A stretch of DNA of 64,000 nucleotides from an uncultured Gammaproteobacteria bacterium (GCA_964486685.1 CAZAOE010000003.1:5306-69305), one strand, 5' to 3'. Counted from the stretch's first letter, positions 10,900 to 16,951 are shown. Made by a program: numbers and translations. The notes: generated by a model from the sequence alone, not told the origin.

Positions 10900-10929
10900 A
10901 TAGCTTAAATATATAAAACAAATCCTTTC

Positions 10930-10958
10930 ATTGACAATCAGGTCTTTTTAGTTTATAA
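10930..10958 (+). promoter_or_regulatory. consensus sigma70 promoter TTGACA-17-TATAAT driving the tRNA-Gln/tRNA-Ser operon
   Basis: exact -35 and -10 hexamers with 17-nt spacer. Confidence 0.7.
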
Positions 10959-11054
10959 TTTATCAAGTTAATTATTGGGTCGTCCGCCTACGCATAAAGC
11001 TACGGCAGGACTGAAATAAAATTAAAATTTGATATTTAAAATTTATTTGAAATT

Positions 11055-11078
11055 CCTGCCTGCCGGCAGGCAGGTATT
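11055..11078. repeat. 24-mer CCTGCCTGCCGGCAGGCAGGTATT (20-bp perfect palindrome) in the tRNA leader
   Basis: identical 24-mer recurs at 30781-30804 upstream of ackA; variant inside porA CDS at 33325-33348. Confidence 0.8.
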
Positions 11079-11106
11079 GTTTGAAATTTGTAATTTAATA
11101 AAGCAT

Positions 11107-11181
11107 TGGGTCGTAGCCAAGTGGTAAGGCAACGGGTTTTGATCCCGTCATGCGTAGGTTCGAATCCTACCGACCCAGCCA
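11107..11181 (+). tRNA. tRNA-Gln (anticodon TTG)
   Basis: 7-bp acceptor TGGGTCG/CGACCCA, anticodon loop TTTTGAT, T-loop GTAGGTTCGAATCCTAC, encoded CCA. Confidence 0.85.
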
Positions 11182-11232
11182 TTCTTCGCTCTCGCTTTAC
11201 TCGAGCTACGAATGGCACGGCCATTAACTTAA

Positions 11233-11322
11233 GGAGAGTTGCCAGAGCGGTCGAATGGGACAGTCTTGAAAACTGTTGAGCCTTTACGGGTTCCGGGGGT
11301 TCGAATCCCTCACTCTCCGCCA
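11233..11322 (+). tRNA. tRNA-Ser (anticodon TGA), type II with long variable arm
   Basis: acceptor GGAGAGT/ACTCTCC, anticodon loop CTTGAAA, long extra arm, GGTTCGAATCC T-loop, encoded CCA. Confidence 0.85.
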
Positions 11323-11435
11323 TCTCATGCTAGCACGATAATATTAAAAATGACTTCTTTATGGAGCTGTTTTTTTTATTTGACCTTAGTCTATAATTAA
11401 GTTAACATATCTATAGTAAGTAATTTTATAAATAT

Positions 11436-12665
11436 ATGCCCACTAAAAAAATTATAACTAGGGGTCCTAAATCTAAAATTGTTGCTTCAAAAAAAGTTAA
11501 AAAGAAAATTACCAATAAAAAATCGTTAAAAATACATAGAAACGAAAAATTTAAGGGTATATACATACAATATAAAATTAATATCGAACTACACGAAAAA
11601 TCAGTTTTTGTGATAGGTGATTATGCCAATAAATATGATTCTTCAATAAAAAAAAGACTTAATGAAATATATGAAAAAATAAAAACAAAAAAAGGAAAAC
11701 TAACTGTTTTAGATTTGAATACTTTGGAAAAATATTTAGAGATGCATCCTCAACAAGAATCCTTGTTTGCAAAAAATACAATTGTATCTATAGTGTCATT
11801 GATGGATAATGTTTTTTCTTCAATATTTAGATATTATTATTCTAACAATCCAGAAAGATTATCTATTGAAAATAAATCAATTACATATGCGGAACTCAAT
11901 GAGGTGGCTAAGATTGAAGACGCAAAAACATATCTACTAGATAAAGAAATAGAAAAAATACTTCTAAATGAAGGTATAAAAGATAGATTCCGTATTCTAA
12001 AAGAAGACATGGGCATTACACTTCCTGATAACAAAGAACATCTAGATGAATTAAATAAACTGATTAAAACGCGCAATCTTATTGTTCATAATTCATGTTG
12101 TGCTGATCAAGAATATATAAAAAAATATGGTTCGAAGGGTATGGAAAAGGGAAGTCATATTCCTTTAAACAAACAGTACCTATTGGACTCCCTAGCCCTA
12201 GTTTTTTATATAGGTGGCTTTATCCTACAATCTGTGCAAATTAAATATGCTGATAAAAAACTTGATGACAGAGACTTTATACTTAATGACTTGATACACG
12301 AATTGGTAAAGAAAGAAAAATTCACGTACATTAAAGAATTATATAATGCTTCAAAAATTTTTACTTTAACTGATATGACTAAAAAAATGATTGTTATTAA
12401 CTTTTGTATTGGAGCAAAAAAACAAGGAAGGTCTAAACAACACATTGATCAGATTTTAGAAAAAGAGGATTGGAGCGTTGAAGATGACGATCTATCGCTA
12501 TATTTATATGCATTAAAAGATCAACATAATATGTTTTATTCTCACTTAAAAAAACTTATAAAAAATAACCAAATACGTAAAAGAGAGTTATTAGAGTGGG
12601 AAATATTTACATTTTATAGAAAAAAAGCAAAATTTAGGGAAATAATAAAAAAAGTAATAAAATAA
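11436..12665 (+). CDS. hypothetical Lys-rich protein; contains Rx4H (TRNLIVHN) HEPN-like motif (weak)
   Basis: 409 aa; first gene after the tRNAs; no confident family assignment. Confidence 0.45.
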   Translation: MPTKKIITRGPKSKIVASKKVKKKITNKKSLKIHRNEKFKGIYIQYKINIELHEKSVFVIGDYANKYDSSIKKRLNEIYEKIKTKKGKLTVLDLNTLEKYLEMHPQQESLFAKNTIVSIVSLMDNVFSSIFRYYYSNNPERLSIENKSITYAELNEVAKIEDAKTYLLDKEIEKILLNEGIKDRFRILKEDMGITLPDNKEHLDELNKLIKTRNLIVHNSCCADQEYIKKYGSKGMEKGSHIPLNKQYLLDSLALVFYIGGFILQSVQIKYADKKLDDRDFILNDLIHELVKKEKFTYIKELYNASKIFTLTDMTKKMIVINFCIGAKKQGRSKQHIDQILEKEDWSVEDDDLSLYLYALKDQHNMFYSHLKKLIKNNQIRKRELLEWEIFTFYRKKAKFREIIKKVIK

Positions 12666-12925
12666 TATAATGTTATCTGACTAAAGAAGAGTGTGGTTGT
12701 GTCACTTTTGTCACCTTTTAAAGAAGCGCTCGAGGATCTTATTTATTGAAATGAAGAAAAATGCTAGAATAACCTTACTGGGCTTGACGAAATTGGGGTT
12801 CCAGCCCGATGTAGCCCGCCAATTAATTCGTTAGAATTAATTGTCCTGAGCGAAGTCGAAGGACACTCGAAAAATCATCTACTAGGTAGATGTTTTTTGT
12901 TTGAAAAATTGATAAAATAAAAAAA

Positions 12926-12955
12926 CTTCTCGTGATAATTACGAGAAGTTTTTTA
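12926..12955. terminator. symmetric hairpin AAAAAACTTCTCGTGATAATTACGAGAAGTTTTTT downstream of the HNH gene
   Basis: perfect stem flanked by A-run and T-run. Confidence 0.6.
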
Positions 12956-12961
12956 AAATGA

Positions 12962-13249
12962 TTAATTTCTAATTGCACATTTTAATTGTGAAGAATCTCC
13001 TTTTTTCACATTATTTTTCCAGTGTAATGGTTGTAAATTAGAGAGAGCATCACTTCCATCCCGTGAATCTGGCACAATATGATCTATTTCCCATCCGTAT
13101 TTTGCATCTCTGTCACCGTGTTTGCTAAATTGCATCCACGCATTACAAGCGTCTTTTCTATAGATATTGGGATTATTATTGCCAACAATTTTTCCTTTTT
13201 TCCAAACTGCTGCAATTATATCACTTGACCATCTTTCTATTCTATACAT
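12962..13249 (-). CDS. HNH endonuclease family protein
   Basis: 95 aa; H-N-H core (WEIDHIVP...NLQPLHWKNN). Confidence 0.7.
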   Translation of the reverse strand: MYRIERWSSDIIAAVWKKGKIVGNNNPNIYRKDACNAWMQFSKHGDRDAKYGWEIDHIVPDSRDGSDALSNLQPLHWKNNVKKGDSSQLKCAIRN

Positions 13250-13595
13250 AATTCTTTAAAATTAATAATTAAATATTTACTAAAAATTGAAAATGTGCTA
13301 TCCTTTAGTTGTTAAAAGTGTTTTGTGTAGGATTTCGATTTTACACATTTTCAAACGAGGTTCAATGAGGCCTCGTTTTGATTTTTAGAATTTTCAAAAC
13401 TTAATAAAAATATAATTAATCTTATTTTACAAAATACCAAAATACTATATATAGTAGTCTAACTATGTTTTAGTATACCACATTTTGTGTTTTTTTACAA
13501 ATTATAATTGTGGATAAATGCCTTTTTGTCCTAATATAGTGGGGATTCAAAATATTTTATTTGATTTTTTTATATGAAAATGGGAGAATAGATAT

Positions 13596-14405
13596 ATGAC
13601 TAAACCATATTACAAAAGCAAAGATGGCAAATTTGTTTTATATAAGGAAGATACTTTAGAATATTTAAAAAAGCTCAAAAAGGATTCGGTCGACATGATT
13701 TTTGCTGATCCACCGTATTTTCTTTCAAGTGGAACTTTCACTTGCCAAAATGGGAAAATGGTTAGCGTTAAAAAAGGAAATTGGGATTTAAGCAATGGTC
13801 TAAAGAAAAATTTTAAATTTCAAAGAGAATGGATTAAATTATGTAAGAAAATATTAAAACCAAATGGAACAATATGGATCAGCGGAACCTATCATTCTAT
13901 TTATCAATGTGGCTTTGCTTTACAAGCCGAAGGATATCATCTTTTGAATGATGTATCTTGGTTTAAACCAAACGCAGCCCCTAATTTAAGTTGTAGATTT
14001 TTTACCGCTAGCCACGAAACATTAATTTGGGCCAAAAAAGACAAGAAAGCAAAACATAAATTTAATTATGATTTAATGAGAGACGGTAAATGGCCAGAAG
14101 ATAAATTTAAAGTCCCCAATAAACAAATGAGATCTGTTTGGTCAATTAATACTCCTAAAAATGGCGAAAAACAATTCGGAAAACATCCCACTCAAAAACC
14201 AATGGATTTGTTGAAAAGAATTATTTTGGCTAGCACAGATAAAAATGATTTAGTTTTAGATCCATTTACTGGAAGTTCCACTACTGGAATCGCTGCTCAC
14301 ATGTTAGGTCGAAGATTTGTTGGAATTGATAAGGAAAAAAAGTATTTAGATTTATCGATTAAAAGATTTGAACACTTAGAAAAAAATCAAAAATTAAATA
14401 TATAA
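13596..14405 (+). CDS. DNA methyltransferase, beta-class amino-MTase (DpnA/MboIC-like; probable N6-adenine)
   Basis: motif IV DPPY (MIFADPPYF) precedes motif I (LDPFTGSSTTG), i.e. beta-class order; 269 aa. Confidence 0.85.
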   Translation: MTKPYYKSKDGKFVLYKEDTLEYLKKLKKDSVDMIFADPPYFLSSGTFTCQNGKMVSVKKGNWDLSNGLKKNFKFQREWIKLCKKILKPNGTIWISGTYHSIYQCGFALQAEGYHLLNDVSWFKPNAAPNLSCRFFTASHETLIWAKKDKKAKHKFNYDLMRDGKWPEDKFKVPNKQMRSVWSINTPKNGEKQFGKHPTQKPMDLLKRIILASTDKNDLVLDPFTGSSTTGIAAHMLGRRFVGIDKEKKYLDLSIKRFEHLEKNQKLNI

Positions 14406-14409
14406 AATT

Positions 14410-15180
14410 ATGGCTAATAGTAAATCATGGGCGAAAATATTTAAAGATCATAATATCGGTGAACACGATTTTTCTAAGAAACCCTTCATTCTTAACGCTG
14501 AAGATATTAAAAAGTCTTGTCAAAGATTTAAAAAAACTGCTGAAAAGGAAGTTCGTATTTTGTGTAAACAAGACACAAGAGAATCTCGTCCAAGAATATT
14601 TAGAAATAATAATTTATTCTTGTTGCCAGTTAAAAATGGAATATATAATATTATAAAAGGAGAGGGTTATATAGATATGCCGGAAATTAAAAAAGAGATA
14701 ACAGTTTATAACTCAAAATTAAATTTTCATTTAGATTCTTCGGAAATCGGTAATTCTGAGATGCAACATTTGGATTTTGCTTATGCCTCTAGTTTAATAA
14801 GAACATTCATGGAAGATACTAGTTTAGTATTAACAATCCGAGGAAGAAAATATACTCCAGAATTTAATTTTTCAGTAGGAAAACAAAATATTAGTGTCCA
14901 AAGCGTACAAACAGAAGTTGATGCAGGATATGAGGGAAAAAAACAAATAGTATTAATAGAGGCAAAAAGTCCGGGTATTAAAAATACAATTATTAGACAA
15001 CTATATTACCCATTTAGACAATGGCAAAATTGCACTAATAAAAAAATTGTTACCTTATTTTTTGAAAGAGATCAAAAAGAAAATTCTTATTCAATTTGGC
15101 AATTTCAATTTAAAAATGTTAAAGACTATTCTAGTATAGAATTAGTTAAATCTGGAAAATATAGAATAATAGAAAAATAA
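14410..15180 (+). CDS. putative Type II restriction endonuclease (PD-(D/E)xK)
   Basis: starts 4 nt after the MTase stop; VDAG...VLIEAKS fits D-x13-ExK. Confidence 0.5.
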   Translation: MANSKSWAKIFKDHNIGEHDFSKKPFILNAEDIKKSCQRFKKTAEKEVRILCKQDTRESRPRIFRNNNLFLLPVKNGIYNIIKGEGYIDMPEIKKEITVYNSKLNFHLDSSEIGNSEMQHLDFAYASSLIRTFMEDTSLVLTIRGRKYTPEFNFSVGKQNISVQSVQTEVDAGYEGKKQIVLIEAKSPGIKNTIIRQLYYPFRQWQNCTNKKIVTLFFERDQKENSYSIWQFQFKNVKDYSSIELVKSGKYRIIEK

Positions 15181-15193
15181 ATATATTAAAAAT

Positions 15194-15227
15194 CACTTCA
15201 AATAAAACAAATGAAGTGCTTTTTTTG
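15194..15227 (+). terminator. rho-independent terminator CACTTCAAATAAAACAAATGAAGTG plus T7
   Basis: hairpin plus T-run directly after the endonuclease gene. Confidence 0.7.
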
Positions 15228-15253
15228 TTGATTTTGATATAATGATAGTAAGT

Positions 15254-15316
15254 TTAAAACGCAAAACGCAAAACTAATTTCTACAACCTAATAAGCTAAC
15301 CCCCTACAAGCTAACC
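15254..15316. repeat. dispersed repeat family copy (AAAACGCAAAACGCAAAACTAATTTCTACAACCTAATAAGCTAACCCCCTACAAGCTAACC)
   Basis: full two-module copy ending 2 nt before the ATG at 15319. Confidence 0.8.
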
Positions 15317-15318
15317 TT

Positions 15319-15687
15319 ATGTCTAAATTTTTAAAATGGACCCCGCGAATTTTAACAATTGCTTTTATTTTATTCATCAGTTTATTTGCTTTAGATTCTT
15401 TCGGAGGAGATGTTCCTGTTTTACATCAAATTATCGGATTTATAATTCATCTTATCCCTAGTTTTGTTTTAGTGGCCATTTTAATCTTGGCTTGGAAAAA
15501 ACCTCAGATTGGAGGAATAATATTTTTAGGAATTGGCTGTGCCTTTACTATATTTTTTAATACCTATGAGCATTTACTCAATTTTTTACTTATTTCGTGC
15601 CCGGTATTTATAATAGGAATATTGTTTTTAATAACGCAAAACGCAAAGTTTAAAACGCAAAATAAAAAACTTAAAATTAATAATTAA
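15319..15687 (+). CDS. hypothetical membrane protein
   Basis: 122 aa, 3-4 TM helices; 3' end encoded by AACGCAAAACGCAAAG repeat module (15636-15672). Confidence 0.45.
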   Translation: MSKFLKWTPRILTIAFILFISLFALDSFGGDVPVLHQIIGFIIHLIPSFVLVAILILAWKKPQIGGIIFLGIGCAFTIFFNTYEHLLNFLLISCPVFIIGILFLITQNAKFKTQNKKLKINN

Positions 15688-15715
15688 AAAAAACTTTCAA
15701 CTTTCTACAAAAATT

Positions 15716-16354
15716 ATGGACAAACAAGATTTAATCCAAAAATGGAAAGAGGAGGATCTGAATTTTGATGAATCTGTTATCAAAGCATTTTTAGATGTCC
15801 CCAGAGAAAATTTTGTTTTAAAAGGTCATAAAGCTTTAGCTTATCAAGACACTCCCTTGCCAATATTAGAAAACCAAACTATTTCACAGCCAAAAACAGT
15901 AATGATAATGACTCAAGCATTAGAATTAAAACCAGGACAAAAAATTTTAGAAATTGGAACCGGCTCTGGATATCAAGCGGCTATTATTTCTAAAATCATT
16001 GGTGAAAAGGGTAGGACTATTACACTAGAAATTAGAGATGAATTATTTAAAATGGCTAAAAAAAACTTAAAAAATTACAAAAACGTTGAAGTGATTAAGG
16101 GTGATGGTAGTATTGGATATCAAAAACAAGCACCTTATGACAGGATAATCTTAACAGCAACAGCTCCTTATATATCAGATGAATTAAAACAGCAACTTAA
16201 AAACAACGGAATAATATTAAGCCCTGTCGCTAAAAGCGGATTCCAAAAAATGATTAAACTTATCAAAAACAAAGATGGCTTTAAAAAAGAAGATTTAGGA
16301 TATTTTTCATTTGTTCCATTAATAGGACAAGGTGGTTGTAAAAATATGCTATAA
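15716..16354 (+). CDS. pcm: protein-L-isoaspartate O-methyltransferase
   Basis: SAM motif LEIGTGSGYQAAI; 212 aa. Confidence 0.85.
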   Translation: MDKQDLIQKWKEEDLNFDESVIKAFLDVPRENFVLKGHKALAYQDTPLPILENQTISQPKTVMIMTQALELKPGQKILEIGTGSGYQAAIISKIIGEKGRTITLEIRDELFKMAKKNLKNYKNVEVIKGDGSIGYQKQAPYDRIILTATAPYISDELKQQLKNNGIILSPVAKSGFQKMIKLIKNKDGFKKEDLGYFSFVPLIGQGGCKNML

Positions 16355-16387
16355 TGAAGACAATAAATTAAATAATAATTAAATATT

Positions 16388-16951
16388 ATGTCTACTAAAA
16401 TTAAAGAATATTTAAATATCCAAAACTGGGATAAAATAAAAATTATTGCTTCTGTAAATGCCAAAACATTAGAATTAATTATTCTGTCTAGTCTAGCCTT
16501 AATAACGCCTATATTTTTAAAACACCCCCAAATACTTGTCGGAGTTATTATTAATGCCATTCTCATTAAGGGAGCTTTGTCTTTAAAAAAATATCAACTT
16601 TTACCCTTAATAATAATGCCTTCTGTTGGTGTAGTGCTGGGTGGATATTTATTTGGAGGTTTAACAAAATTTGTATTTTTTATAATGCCGTTTATTTGGC
16701 TTGGCAACACTATATTAATATACTTATTTAAAAAAAGAACAAATAAAAACTATATTTTCACGCTTTTATTGGCATCTTTTTCAAAAATGACATTTTTATT
16801 TTTAAGTGCCTTAATTTTATATTTATTAAATATAATTCCAAAACCACTTTTAATGGCTATGGGCTATATGCAATTTATAACCGCTATTTTAGGTGGCACC
16901 CTAGTATTAACTGAATTAAAAATTGAAAAATGGTTCAAACCCATTAAATGA
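16388..16951 (+). CDS. hypothetical polytopic membrane protein
   Basis: 187 aa, 5-6 predicted TM segments. Confidence 0.45.
   Translation: MSTKIKEYLNIQNWDKIKIIASVNAKTLELIILSSLALITPIFLKHPQILVGVIINAILIKGALSLKKYQLLPLIIMPSVGVVLGGYLFGGLTKFVFFIMPFIWLGNTILIYLFKKRTNKNYIFTLLLASFSKMTFLFLSALILYLLNIIPKPLLMAMGYMQFITAILGGTLVLTELKIEKWFKPIK

Follow-up and report, generated by a model that had tools for sequence, protein, structure and literature searches.

A putative DpnA-type restriction–modification cassette among separate defence-type genes beside tRNA-Ser in an uncultured gammaproteobacterium

We have analysed a 64,000 nucleotide (nt) stretch of DNA, here called the window, from an uncultured Gammaproteobacteria bacterium (GCA_964486685.1, CAZAOE010000003.1:5306-69305), focusing on a block of four genes that lies directly 3' of a tRNA-Ser gene. 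We judge it about 75 % probable that this block is made up of three mutually independent accessory modules that happen to adjoin: a two-gene Type II restriction–modification (R-M) cassette, a gene encoding a 409 amino acid (aa) protein predicted to be a standalone HEPN-family RNase and a gene encoding a 95-aa HNH nuclease. Taken together, these genes are a commonplace grouping of defence genes, in a genome that is small and low in GC, rather than a novel composite system. An earlier reading, made from the DNA alone and referred to below as the sequence-only reading, had placed the four open reading frames (ORFs), their strands and lengths, the tRNA-Ser gene and the terminal hairpin just as we find them.

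The cassette consists of a gene for a 269-aa beta-class N6-adenine DNA methyltransferase (MTase) of the DpnA/LlaDCHIB type (13596–14405, plus strand) and a gene for a 256-aa candidate Type II restriction endonuclease carrying DUF6996 and DUF6997 (14410–15180, plus strand). The MTase stop codon and the ATG of the nuclease are separated by 4 nt (AAAA). Linkage was assessed across 80 reference-genome loci that carry the DUF6996/DUF6997 nuclease family. An MTase gene lies immediately beside the nuclease gene in 78 of these loci, and the remaining two are on short contigs of 1,017 and 2,220 base pairs (bp). The arrangement seen in the window, a DpnA-type MTase and then the nuclease, occurs at 47 loci; an adjacent DpnA-type MTase in any arrangement is found at 60 and an adjacent Dam-type (D12) MTase at 23. 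Several loci carry MTases of both types, as DpnII/MboI cassettes do, and those with a Dam-type enzyme are often ordered D12-DpnA-R or D12-R-second-MTase (R being the nuclease), the latter being the order of MboI. The DUF6996/DUF6997 protein is the sole nuclease beside the MTase in 74 of the 78 MTase-linked loci, and an extra nuclease of the DpnII family is present in the operon at 4 of the 80. This adjacency suggests that the MTase and the 256-aa protein are probably a genuine Type II R-M pair, as had been proposed from the sequence.

The same two genes are found together in other genomic contexts. By blastn, the window is 89.6 % identical at the nucleotide level to two other loci (L016 and L179) over exactly 13594–15180 (plus strand). 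The similarity starts 2 nt before the MTase ATG and ends at the stop codon of the nuclease, and beyond these points the junctions differ. In L179 (2165–3749) the R-M pair lies between the genes for the TPP-binding and gamma subunits of the pyruvate:ferredoxin oxidoreductase (por) operon, in the same orientation as these, and neither the HNH gene nor the 409-aa gene is near it. The shared DNA is limited to the two R-M ORFs and therefore the mobile unit is those two ORFs; the two-gene R-M cassette is horizontally mobile.

Proteins of the window were compared with the Pfam, NCBIfam and PADLOC profile libraries. The MTase matches Pfam N6_N4_Mtase (PF01555) at 1.6e-59 and PADLOC MTase_II at 3e-98. 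Its DPPY motif (residues 38–41) lies ahead of motif I (residues 222–230), which is the beta-class order. The sequence-only reading had described DPPY before FxGxG; the order is right and the second motif is not, because motif I reads DPFTGSSTT, with the FTGSS form that is present in 35 of 56 members of the orthogroup. When annotated plasmids were searched by tblastn the best matches, at about 51 % identity, were to the middle gene of three-gene cassettes (Dam-type MTase, second MTase and DpnII-family nuclease) on Staphylococcus plasmids and on Lactococcus lactis pSRQ700; alpha-proteobacterial CcrM-type matches were only about 40 % identical. Pairwise alignment with LlaDCHIB, the second MTase of pSRQ700, gave 51 % identity over 259 aa. 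LlaDCHI is related to DpnII and methylates GATC (PMC4132740), and DpnA is the second GATC methylase of DpnII systems, able to act on single-stranded DNA (ssDNA) and induced by competence in pneumococcus (PMC3812788). The DpnA-type MTases of the cassette loci are 65–71 % identical to one another and 51–52 % identical to LlaDCHIB. The best match among solved structures is to CcrM (6pbd, 3.9e-55) and NCBIfam gives first place to the CcrM equivalog (8.2e-71), for which the score is 238.7 bits against a cut-off of 830 bits; the match spans model positions 7–255 of 350 and the C-terminal domain of CcrM is absent. Chains labelled DpnA in the Protein Data Bank (PDB) score far below CcrM for this protein. 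It appears that PDB and NCBIfam hold no true DpnA, and that this is why CcrM ranks first in both. On the basis of sequence, we class the window MTase as DpnA/LlaDCHIB type, closest to the GATC group, which bears out the likeness to DpnA/MboIC enzymes that had been noted earlier.

The 256-aa protein matches Pfam DUF6997 at 7e-50, Pfam DUF6996 at 1.7e-20 and PADLOC REase_II at 2.9e-30. It has the core E169-x-D171-x12-E184-x-K186, and all four residues are invariant in 33 homologs; the core recognized by the sequence-only reading is thus upheld, with a spacing of x12 and not the x13 it had given. An AlphaFold2 (AF2) model (pLDDT 84) was compared with known structures using Foldseek. The top matches, all of them weak, are nearly all PD-(D/E)xK nucleases and include the Cas4-family protein ACE1 (probability 0.97), SSO0001, RecU, Hjc, McrC, BsaXI and HincII. 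The model points to the 256-aa protein as a candidate PD-(D/E)xK-type restriction nuclease. No relative was found among PDB sequences, and no named homolog was found in phage records or in the literature searched under the names DUF6996 and DUF6997. We considered homology to the DpnII nuclease and rejected it: hhalign gave a probability of 0.06 % against the LlaDCHI nuclease and there is no match to PF04556, which the LlaDCHI nuclease itself matches at 3.6e-86.

The DUF6996/DUF6997 family is large (3,901 hits). Homologs of the 256-aa protein are 63–92 % identical across phyla, with genome labels that include Patescibacteria, Deltaproteobacteria, Zixibacteria, Planctomycetota, Bacteroidales, spirochaetes (Treponema) and Endomicrobium (Endomicrobia), among others, and the public annotations listed are 'hypothetical' throughout. 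A distantly related long variant of about 425 aa, with an additional C-terminal DUF7226, is encoded 3' of Dam-type methylase genes on plasmids of Firmicutes, where it comes directly after them, and of cyanobacteria (L013:3992–5263, L014:3980–5287 and L015:3965–5254; plasmids NZ_CP048628, NC_019749 and NC_021516). Some copies of this variant are labelled 'translation elongation factor' or 'AAA-associated domain-containing protein' in public records, and these labels are likely to be misannotations.

The sequence data indicate that GATC is the likely target of the cassette. We compared 1 Mb of DNA around the nuclease family with 0.87 Mb of control loci, using a per-locus Mann–Whitney test. Of all 4-bp palindromes, GATC is the one most strongly avoided near the family, with an observed/expected ratio (O/E) of 0.59 as against 0.88 in the controls (P=2e-5); for GANTC the ratio is 0.92 in both sets. 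In the 64 kb window the O/E is 0.53 for GATC and 0.90 for GANTC, and no Dam-type or DpnII-type gene is present elsewhere in the window. To our knowledge, GATC is the one specificity common to the DpnA-type and Dam-type methylase families. Two unrelated MTase families pair with one nuclease family, which argues for GATC. A literature lead linking Endomicrobia with GATC was discarded as a false match to 'GatCAB'. Other motifs are also depleted: across the whole window ACGT is as depleted as GATC (O/E 0.53) and CTAG, TGCA and TCGA are moderately so (0.69–0.73), and in pyrG control loci GGCC is the most depleted 4-mer (0.51). These depletions hint at other restriction pressures in these lineages.

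We propose that the MTase would methylate adenine, most likely within GATC, on the host DNA, and that the 256-aa nuclease would cut the unmethylated form of the same site on incoming phage or plasmid DNA. The nuclease would probably also punish loss of the cassette, addiction being the usual behaviour of R-M systems. In this scheme the DUF6996/DUF6997 protein would stand in for the DpnII nuclease of classical DpnII/LlaDCHI/MboI cassettes (Streptococcus pneumoniae dpnM-dpnA-dpnB; pSRQ700), though the two are unrelated in sequence. The window cassette resembles those systems in that its MTase is an ortholog-level relative of DpnA/LlaDCHIB, its genes are tightly packed and co-oriented, its predicted target is GATC and many of its relatives also carry a Dam-type first methylase. 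It differs from them in having a DUF6996/DUF6997 nuclease in place of a PF04556 protein and in having no Dam/DpnM-type (D12) MTase, so that the DpnA-type enzyme would be the sole protector.

Several observations weigh against this account of the cassette. An identity of 51 % to a characterized MTase does not fix specificity, the leading PDB and NCBIfam matches are to a GANTC enzyme, and the control loci of the avoidance test differ taxonomically from the test loci. DpnA is an accessory ssDNA methylase in DpnII systems (PMC3812788) and here would have to serve as the only maintenance enzyme. Foldseek lends a nuclease fold weak support (E=3.8e-3 at best, with a TM of about 0.25), and the occurrence of two nuclease families in four cassettes is odd if they are simply redundant. 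Some of these points would fit a HinfI/CcrM-like GANTC system. The window MTase shares its Pfam family and the DPPY-before-motif-I order with the CcrM/M.HinfI group, CcrM leads the matches in both solved structures and NCBIfam equivalogs, and an MTase gene that precedes the nuclease gene, together with a nuclease about 260 aa long, would suit HinfI as well. However, the score is far below the equivalog cut-off and the CcrM C-terminal domain is missing, the identity to LlaDCHIB exceeds that to CcrM-type enzymes, and members of this nuclease family are found in one cassette with Dam-type MTases and in some cases even with nucleases of the DpnII family. GANTC is not avoided in the window or around the family (0.90–0.92), in contrast with GATC (0.53–0.59). 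A GANTC specificity is consequently improbable, and the CcrM/GANTC assignment was dropped after the plasmid tblastn and motif-avoidance tests. The four operons with both nucleases (L036:8376–11686, L045:8370–11688, L020:8166–11507 and L088:24–3648), in which the genes are co-oriented and include a Dam-type MTase and a second MTase, bring up another explanation, namely that the DUF6996/DUF6997 protein, rather than being a restriction enzyme of the classical sort, is an accessory nuclease tied to GATC methylation. It might, for example, nick hemimethylated sites as MutH does, or act on a different substrate such as ssDNA. Identity of 63–92 % across phyla is unusual conservation for a restriction enzyme, and the uniformly 'hypothetical' annotations are compatible with such a role. 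Recent horizontal spread would also give high cross-phylum identity, however, and the REase_II match, the presence of this protein as the only nuclease beside the MTase in nearly all linked loci, the insertion of the pair as a selfish unit in unrelated operons and the occurrence of long variants on plasmids all argue for a restriction enzyme. We give an accessory role a low probability, and prefer a Type II cassette directed at GATC.

The second module is the 409-aa gene (11436–12665, plus strand), whose assignment depends on its family. A word-indexed search gave 10 homologs, and 4,842 cluster representatives were found when the search was made exhaustively with a profile. The apparent rarity of the family was a sensitivity artefact of the word-indexed search with a low-complexity, fast-evolving protein. 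In an alignment of 48 members, at about 20 % identity, the sole invariant residues are R213, H218 and Y227, and N214 and V217 are nearly so. Four of these residues lie in the motif TRNLIVHN (R213-N214-L-I-V-H218), which the sequence-only reading had described as an Rx4H signature reminiscent of HEPN/Abi proteins. Eight of the 48 members match Pfam HEPN_RiboL-PSP (PF18735) at E≤0.01 (best 9.4e-7), and for other members the matches are to HEPN models of PADLOC (RT-associated HEPN, CARF-HEPN and Csx1). In one relative, P0264, the Pfam HEPN match (residues 125–268) includes its own RNLLVH at residues 248–253. HEPN domains have been described (PMC3710099) as having an Rx4-6H motif that ends helix 3 of a helical bundle, with the arginine followed by a polar residue and with helix 2 contributing an acidic one. 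In an AF2 model of the 409-aa protein (pLDDT 84) the Lys-rich N-terminus (residues 1–33) is disordered and all that follows is helical. In this model the R213/H218 motif ends helix 200–219 and E171, which is invariant, is part of the long helix before it (160–178); a helical C-terminal region, about 280–409, has no assigned family. The conservation, the profile matches of relatives and the model together make it likely that the 409-aa protein is a HEPN RNase. It may be a metal-independent RNase using R213, N214 and H218, acting as an Abi-type abortive-infection or toxin protein.

The closest comparison is with the RiboL-PSP-HEPN branch, a distant relative of AbiD and AbiF according to Anantharaman et al. 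(2013, PMC3710099). The 409-aa protein resembles the RiboL-PSP-HEPN and AbiD/AbiF branch in its RNxxxH motif at the end of a long helix with a glutamate upstream, in standing alone in variable contexts and in having relatives that match PF18735. It is unlike RiboL-PSP-HEPN proteins in falling below detection by PF18735, in having neither an L-PSP fusion nor a ParB neighbour and in its Lys-rich disordered N-terminus and helical C-terminal region of about 130 aa. The 10 homologs from the word-indexed search each stand alone in unrelated contexts: a Rep gene is the neighbour in one case, dnaJ and tRNA synthetase genes flank the homolog in another, and sugar-metabolism genes surround it in a third. 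The homolog in L001 (7616–11140), which is 70 % identical, has a rolling-circle-type Rep gene (REP_ORF2-G2P/RepSA) at a distance of about 1.4 kb and an AbiEi/AbiEii pair about 7 kb away, as might be expected if a plasmid-like element had integrated there or if this were a neighbourhood of defence genes.

The third module is a gene on the minus strand (12962–13249) encoding a 95-aa protein that we predict to be a solitary minimal HNH nuclease. It matches Pfam HNH (PF01844) at E=5.5e-8, with 33.3 bits against a cut-off of 21.4, and PF13395 with 27.3 bits against a cut-off of 22, and the HNH call made from the sequence is thus above the Pfam threshold. The protein shares the HNH beta-beta-alpha-metal core (EIDHIVP...N...H) with the small solitary HNH proteins that JGI labels, in COG style, as 'McrA'. 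McrA has a separate DNA-recognition domain; the 95-aa protein, in contrast, has none. There are 701 homologs of about 95 aa, which are solitary and occur in mixed contexts. Only one of the 80 cassette loci (L022) has an HNH homolog beside the nuclease, and therefore the HNH gene is not part of the R-M system. In L187 (5001–6918) a 68 % identical homolog lies 92 bp 5' of a gene whose 512-aa product is a fusion of an N6_N4 MTase with Mrr_cat. Along with the case of L022, it gives a hint that mini-HNH genes of this type are loosely associated with R-M genes.

The assignments of the 409-aa gene and of the block as a whole have to be set against two further explanations. The case for a HEPN domain in the 409-aa protein is weakened by the fact that the window protein itself has no HEPN profile match in Pfam, PADLOC or PDB-profile searches. 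The relative that was inspected, P0264, scores 20.7 bits against the Pfam cut-off of 28.4, fold and PDB profile searches with the 409-aa protein recovered no solved HEPN structure, and Pfam, NCBIfam, PADLOC, PDB sequence and PDB profile searches gave chance-level matches only. The protein could instead be a non-catalytic helical (TPR-like) scaffold or nucleic-acid binder in which the Rx4H residues are structural. Whole-chain fold searches return only helical repeats (PPR, TPR and AimR, E>0.3) and there is a weak match to TPR_END_plus, as such a protein would give. But R213 and H218 are two of only three invariants at about 20 % identity, which points to catalysis; the RN...H form, its position at a helix end and the invariant acidic residue upstream fit the published description of HEPN domains; and several relatives match HEPN profiles from two libraries. 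A scaffold is hence the unlikely alternative to a HEPN RNase.

A single tRNA-Ser-targeted integrated island, or a single multi-component defence system in which all four genes cooperate, would account for the position of the block directly 3' of a tRNA gene, a classic site of integration, and for the defence-type character of every gene in it. The HNH homologs that adjoin a cassette nuclease in L022 and an MTase-Mrr fusion elsewhere also point this way. The remaining evidence does not. The four ORFs include no integrase or recombinase, no direct repeat of the tRNA-Ser 3' end was found within 10900–16500 when an att site was looked for, and there is no compositional shift: the GC content of the block genes is 0.26–0.34, the flanks are at 0.30–0.31 and the whole window is at about 30 %. 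The framing of the block as a tRNA-integrated island, which the sequence-only reading had adopted, is not supported by these results. That reading had also thought the combination of modules unusual; homologs of the 409-aa and HNH genes occur in unrelated contexts without the cassette, no 409-aa homolog is near a cassette in any of the 80 loci, 79 of the 80 have neither an HNH nor a 409-aa homolog and the shared DNA stops at the borders of the R-M ORFs. Contigs of the same population have the same arrangement as the window, and, in a comparison aimed at an empty site, the nearest pyrG relatives, from metagenomes, are at most 70 % identical and share no synteny downstream. An island or combined system is very unlikely, and a small cluster of separately acquired defence-type genes fits better than one integrated element. 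On three points where the sequence-only reading had exposed itself to contradiction, none was found: a nuclease fold is weakly predicted for the 256-aa protein, the MTase is not an orphan kept in syntenic position and the 409-aa protein matches no housekeeping family.

The borders and gaps of the block were examined as well. Directly 5' of it are tRNA genes for Gln (11107–11181) and then Ser (anticodon TGA; 11233–11322, plus strand), identified with ARAGORN and Rfam (54.1 bits for tRNA-Ser). A 95-aa ORF at 11036–11323 (minus strand), antisense to both tRNA genes, and a sub-threshold Rfam match to 'Plastid-psbl-rps4' at 11268–11319 (minus strand), antisense to tRNA-Ser, were set aside as artefacts of tRNA sequence. 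The 409-aa and HNH genes are convergent, with two hairpins between them (12876–12954): one at 12876–12892, followed by a T-run, on the plus strand, and a 14-bp hairpin at 12920–12954 that is terminator-like for the HNH gene on the minus strand. The gap at 12680–12900, which ends in the former hairpin and T-run, has a GC content above its surroundings and an RNAfold energy of −60.1 kcal/mol (z=−2.2). It matched no Rfam family, contains a loose resemblance to a tRNA 3' end at 12795–12822 and is not conserved beside 409-aa homologs; it could be a small RNA of a new type or a decayed remnant. The HNH and MTase genes are divergent. The intergenic region between them (13250–13595) contains promoter-like sites for the R-M operon at 13426–13455 and 13511–13540 and a hairpin at 13353–13378, and a search of this region for a controller (C-protein) ORF 5' of the MTase found none. 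The terminator-like hairpin that closes the block (CACTTCA/TGAAGTG and T7, 15194–15226, plus strand, read directly from the sequence) starts 14 nt past the nuclease stop codon. In its hairpin (15194–15218) a loop of 11 nt is closed by a stem of 7 bp, three of them G-C pairs, and the T7 follows at 15220–15226. It was not listed by the consensus terminator scan because its loop exceeds the 8-nt limit. This is a plausible but modest terminator, and 'strong', the term used for it in the sequence-only reading, overstates it.

Of most interest in what remains are the nuclease family, which is under-annotated, and the four operons in which it is found together with DpnII-type nucleases. We suggest tentatively, as a possibility that we consider rather doubtful, that DUF6996/DUF6997 is an unrecognized and widespread restriction-nuclease family that has displaced the DpnII nuclease in DpnII-type GATC cassettes by non-orthologous replacement. 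If this were true, the two-nuclease operons could be replacement intermediates, or could encode enzymes with different jobs (for example in cleavage chemistry or substrates), and the DpnA-type enzyme would be the sole protective methylase in most cassettes. The evidence allows a new annotation for DUF6996/DUF6997, as putative Type II restriction enzymes that work with methylases of the DpnA and Dam types, and a family of 4,842 cluster representatives is linked to the HEPN superfamily; both leave the current view of defence systems as it is. For the organism itself, the data suggest that the genome carries a probable GATC restriction barrier together with two further nuclease-type accessory genes. 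Ultra-small bacteria rely mainly on R-M for defence, and knowledge of such a barrier would be useful for transforming or culturing them.

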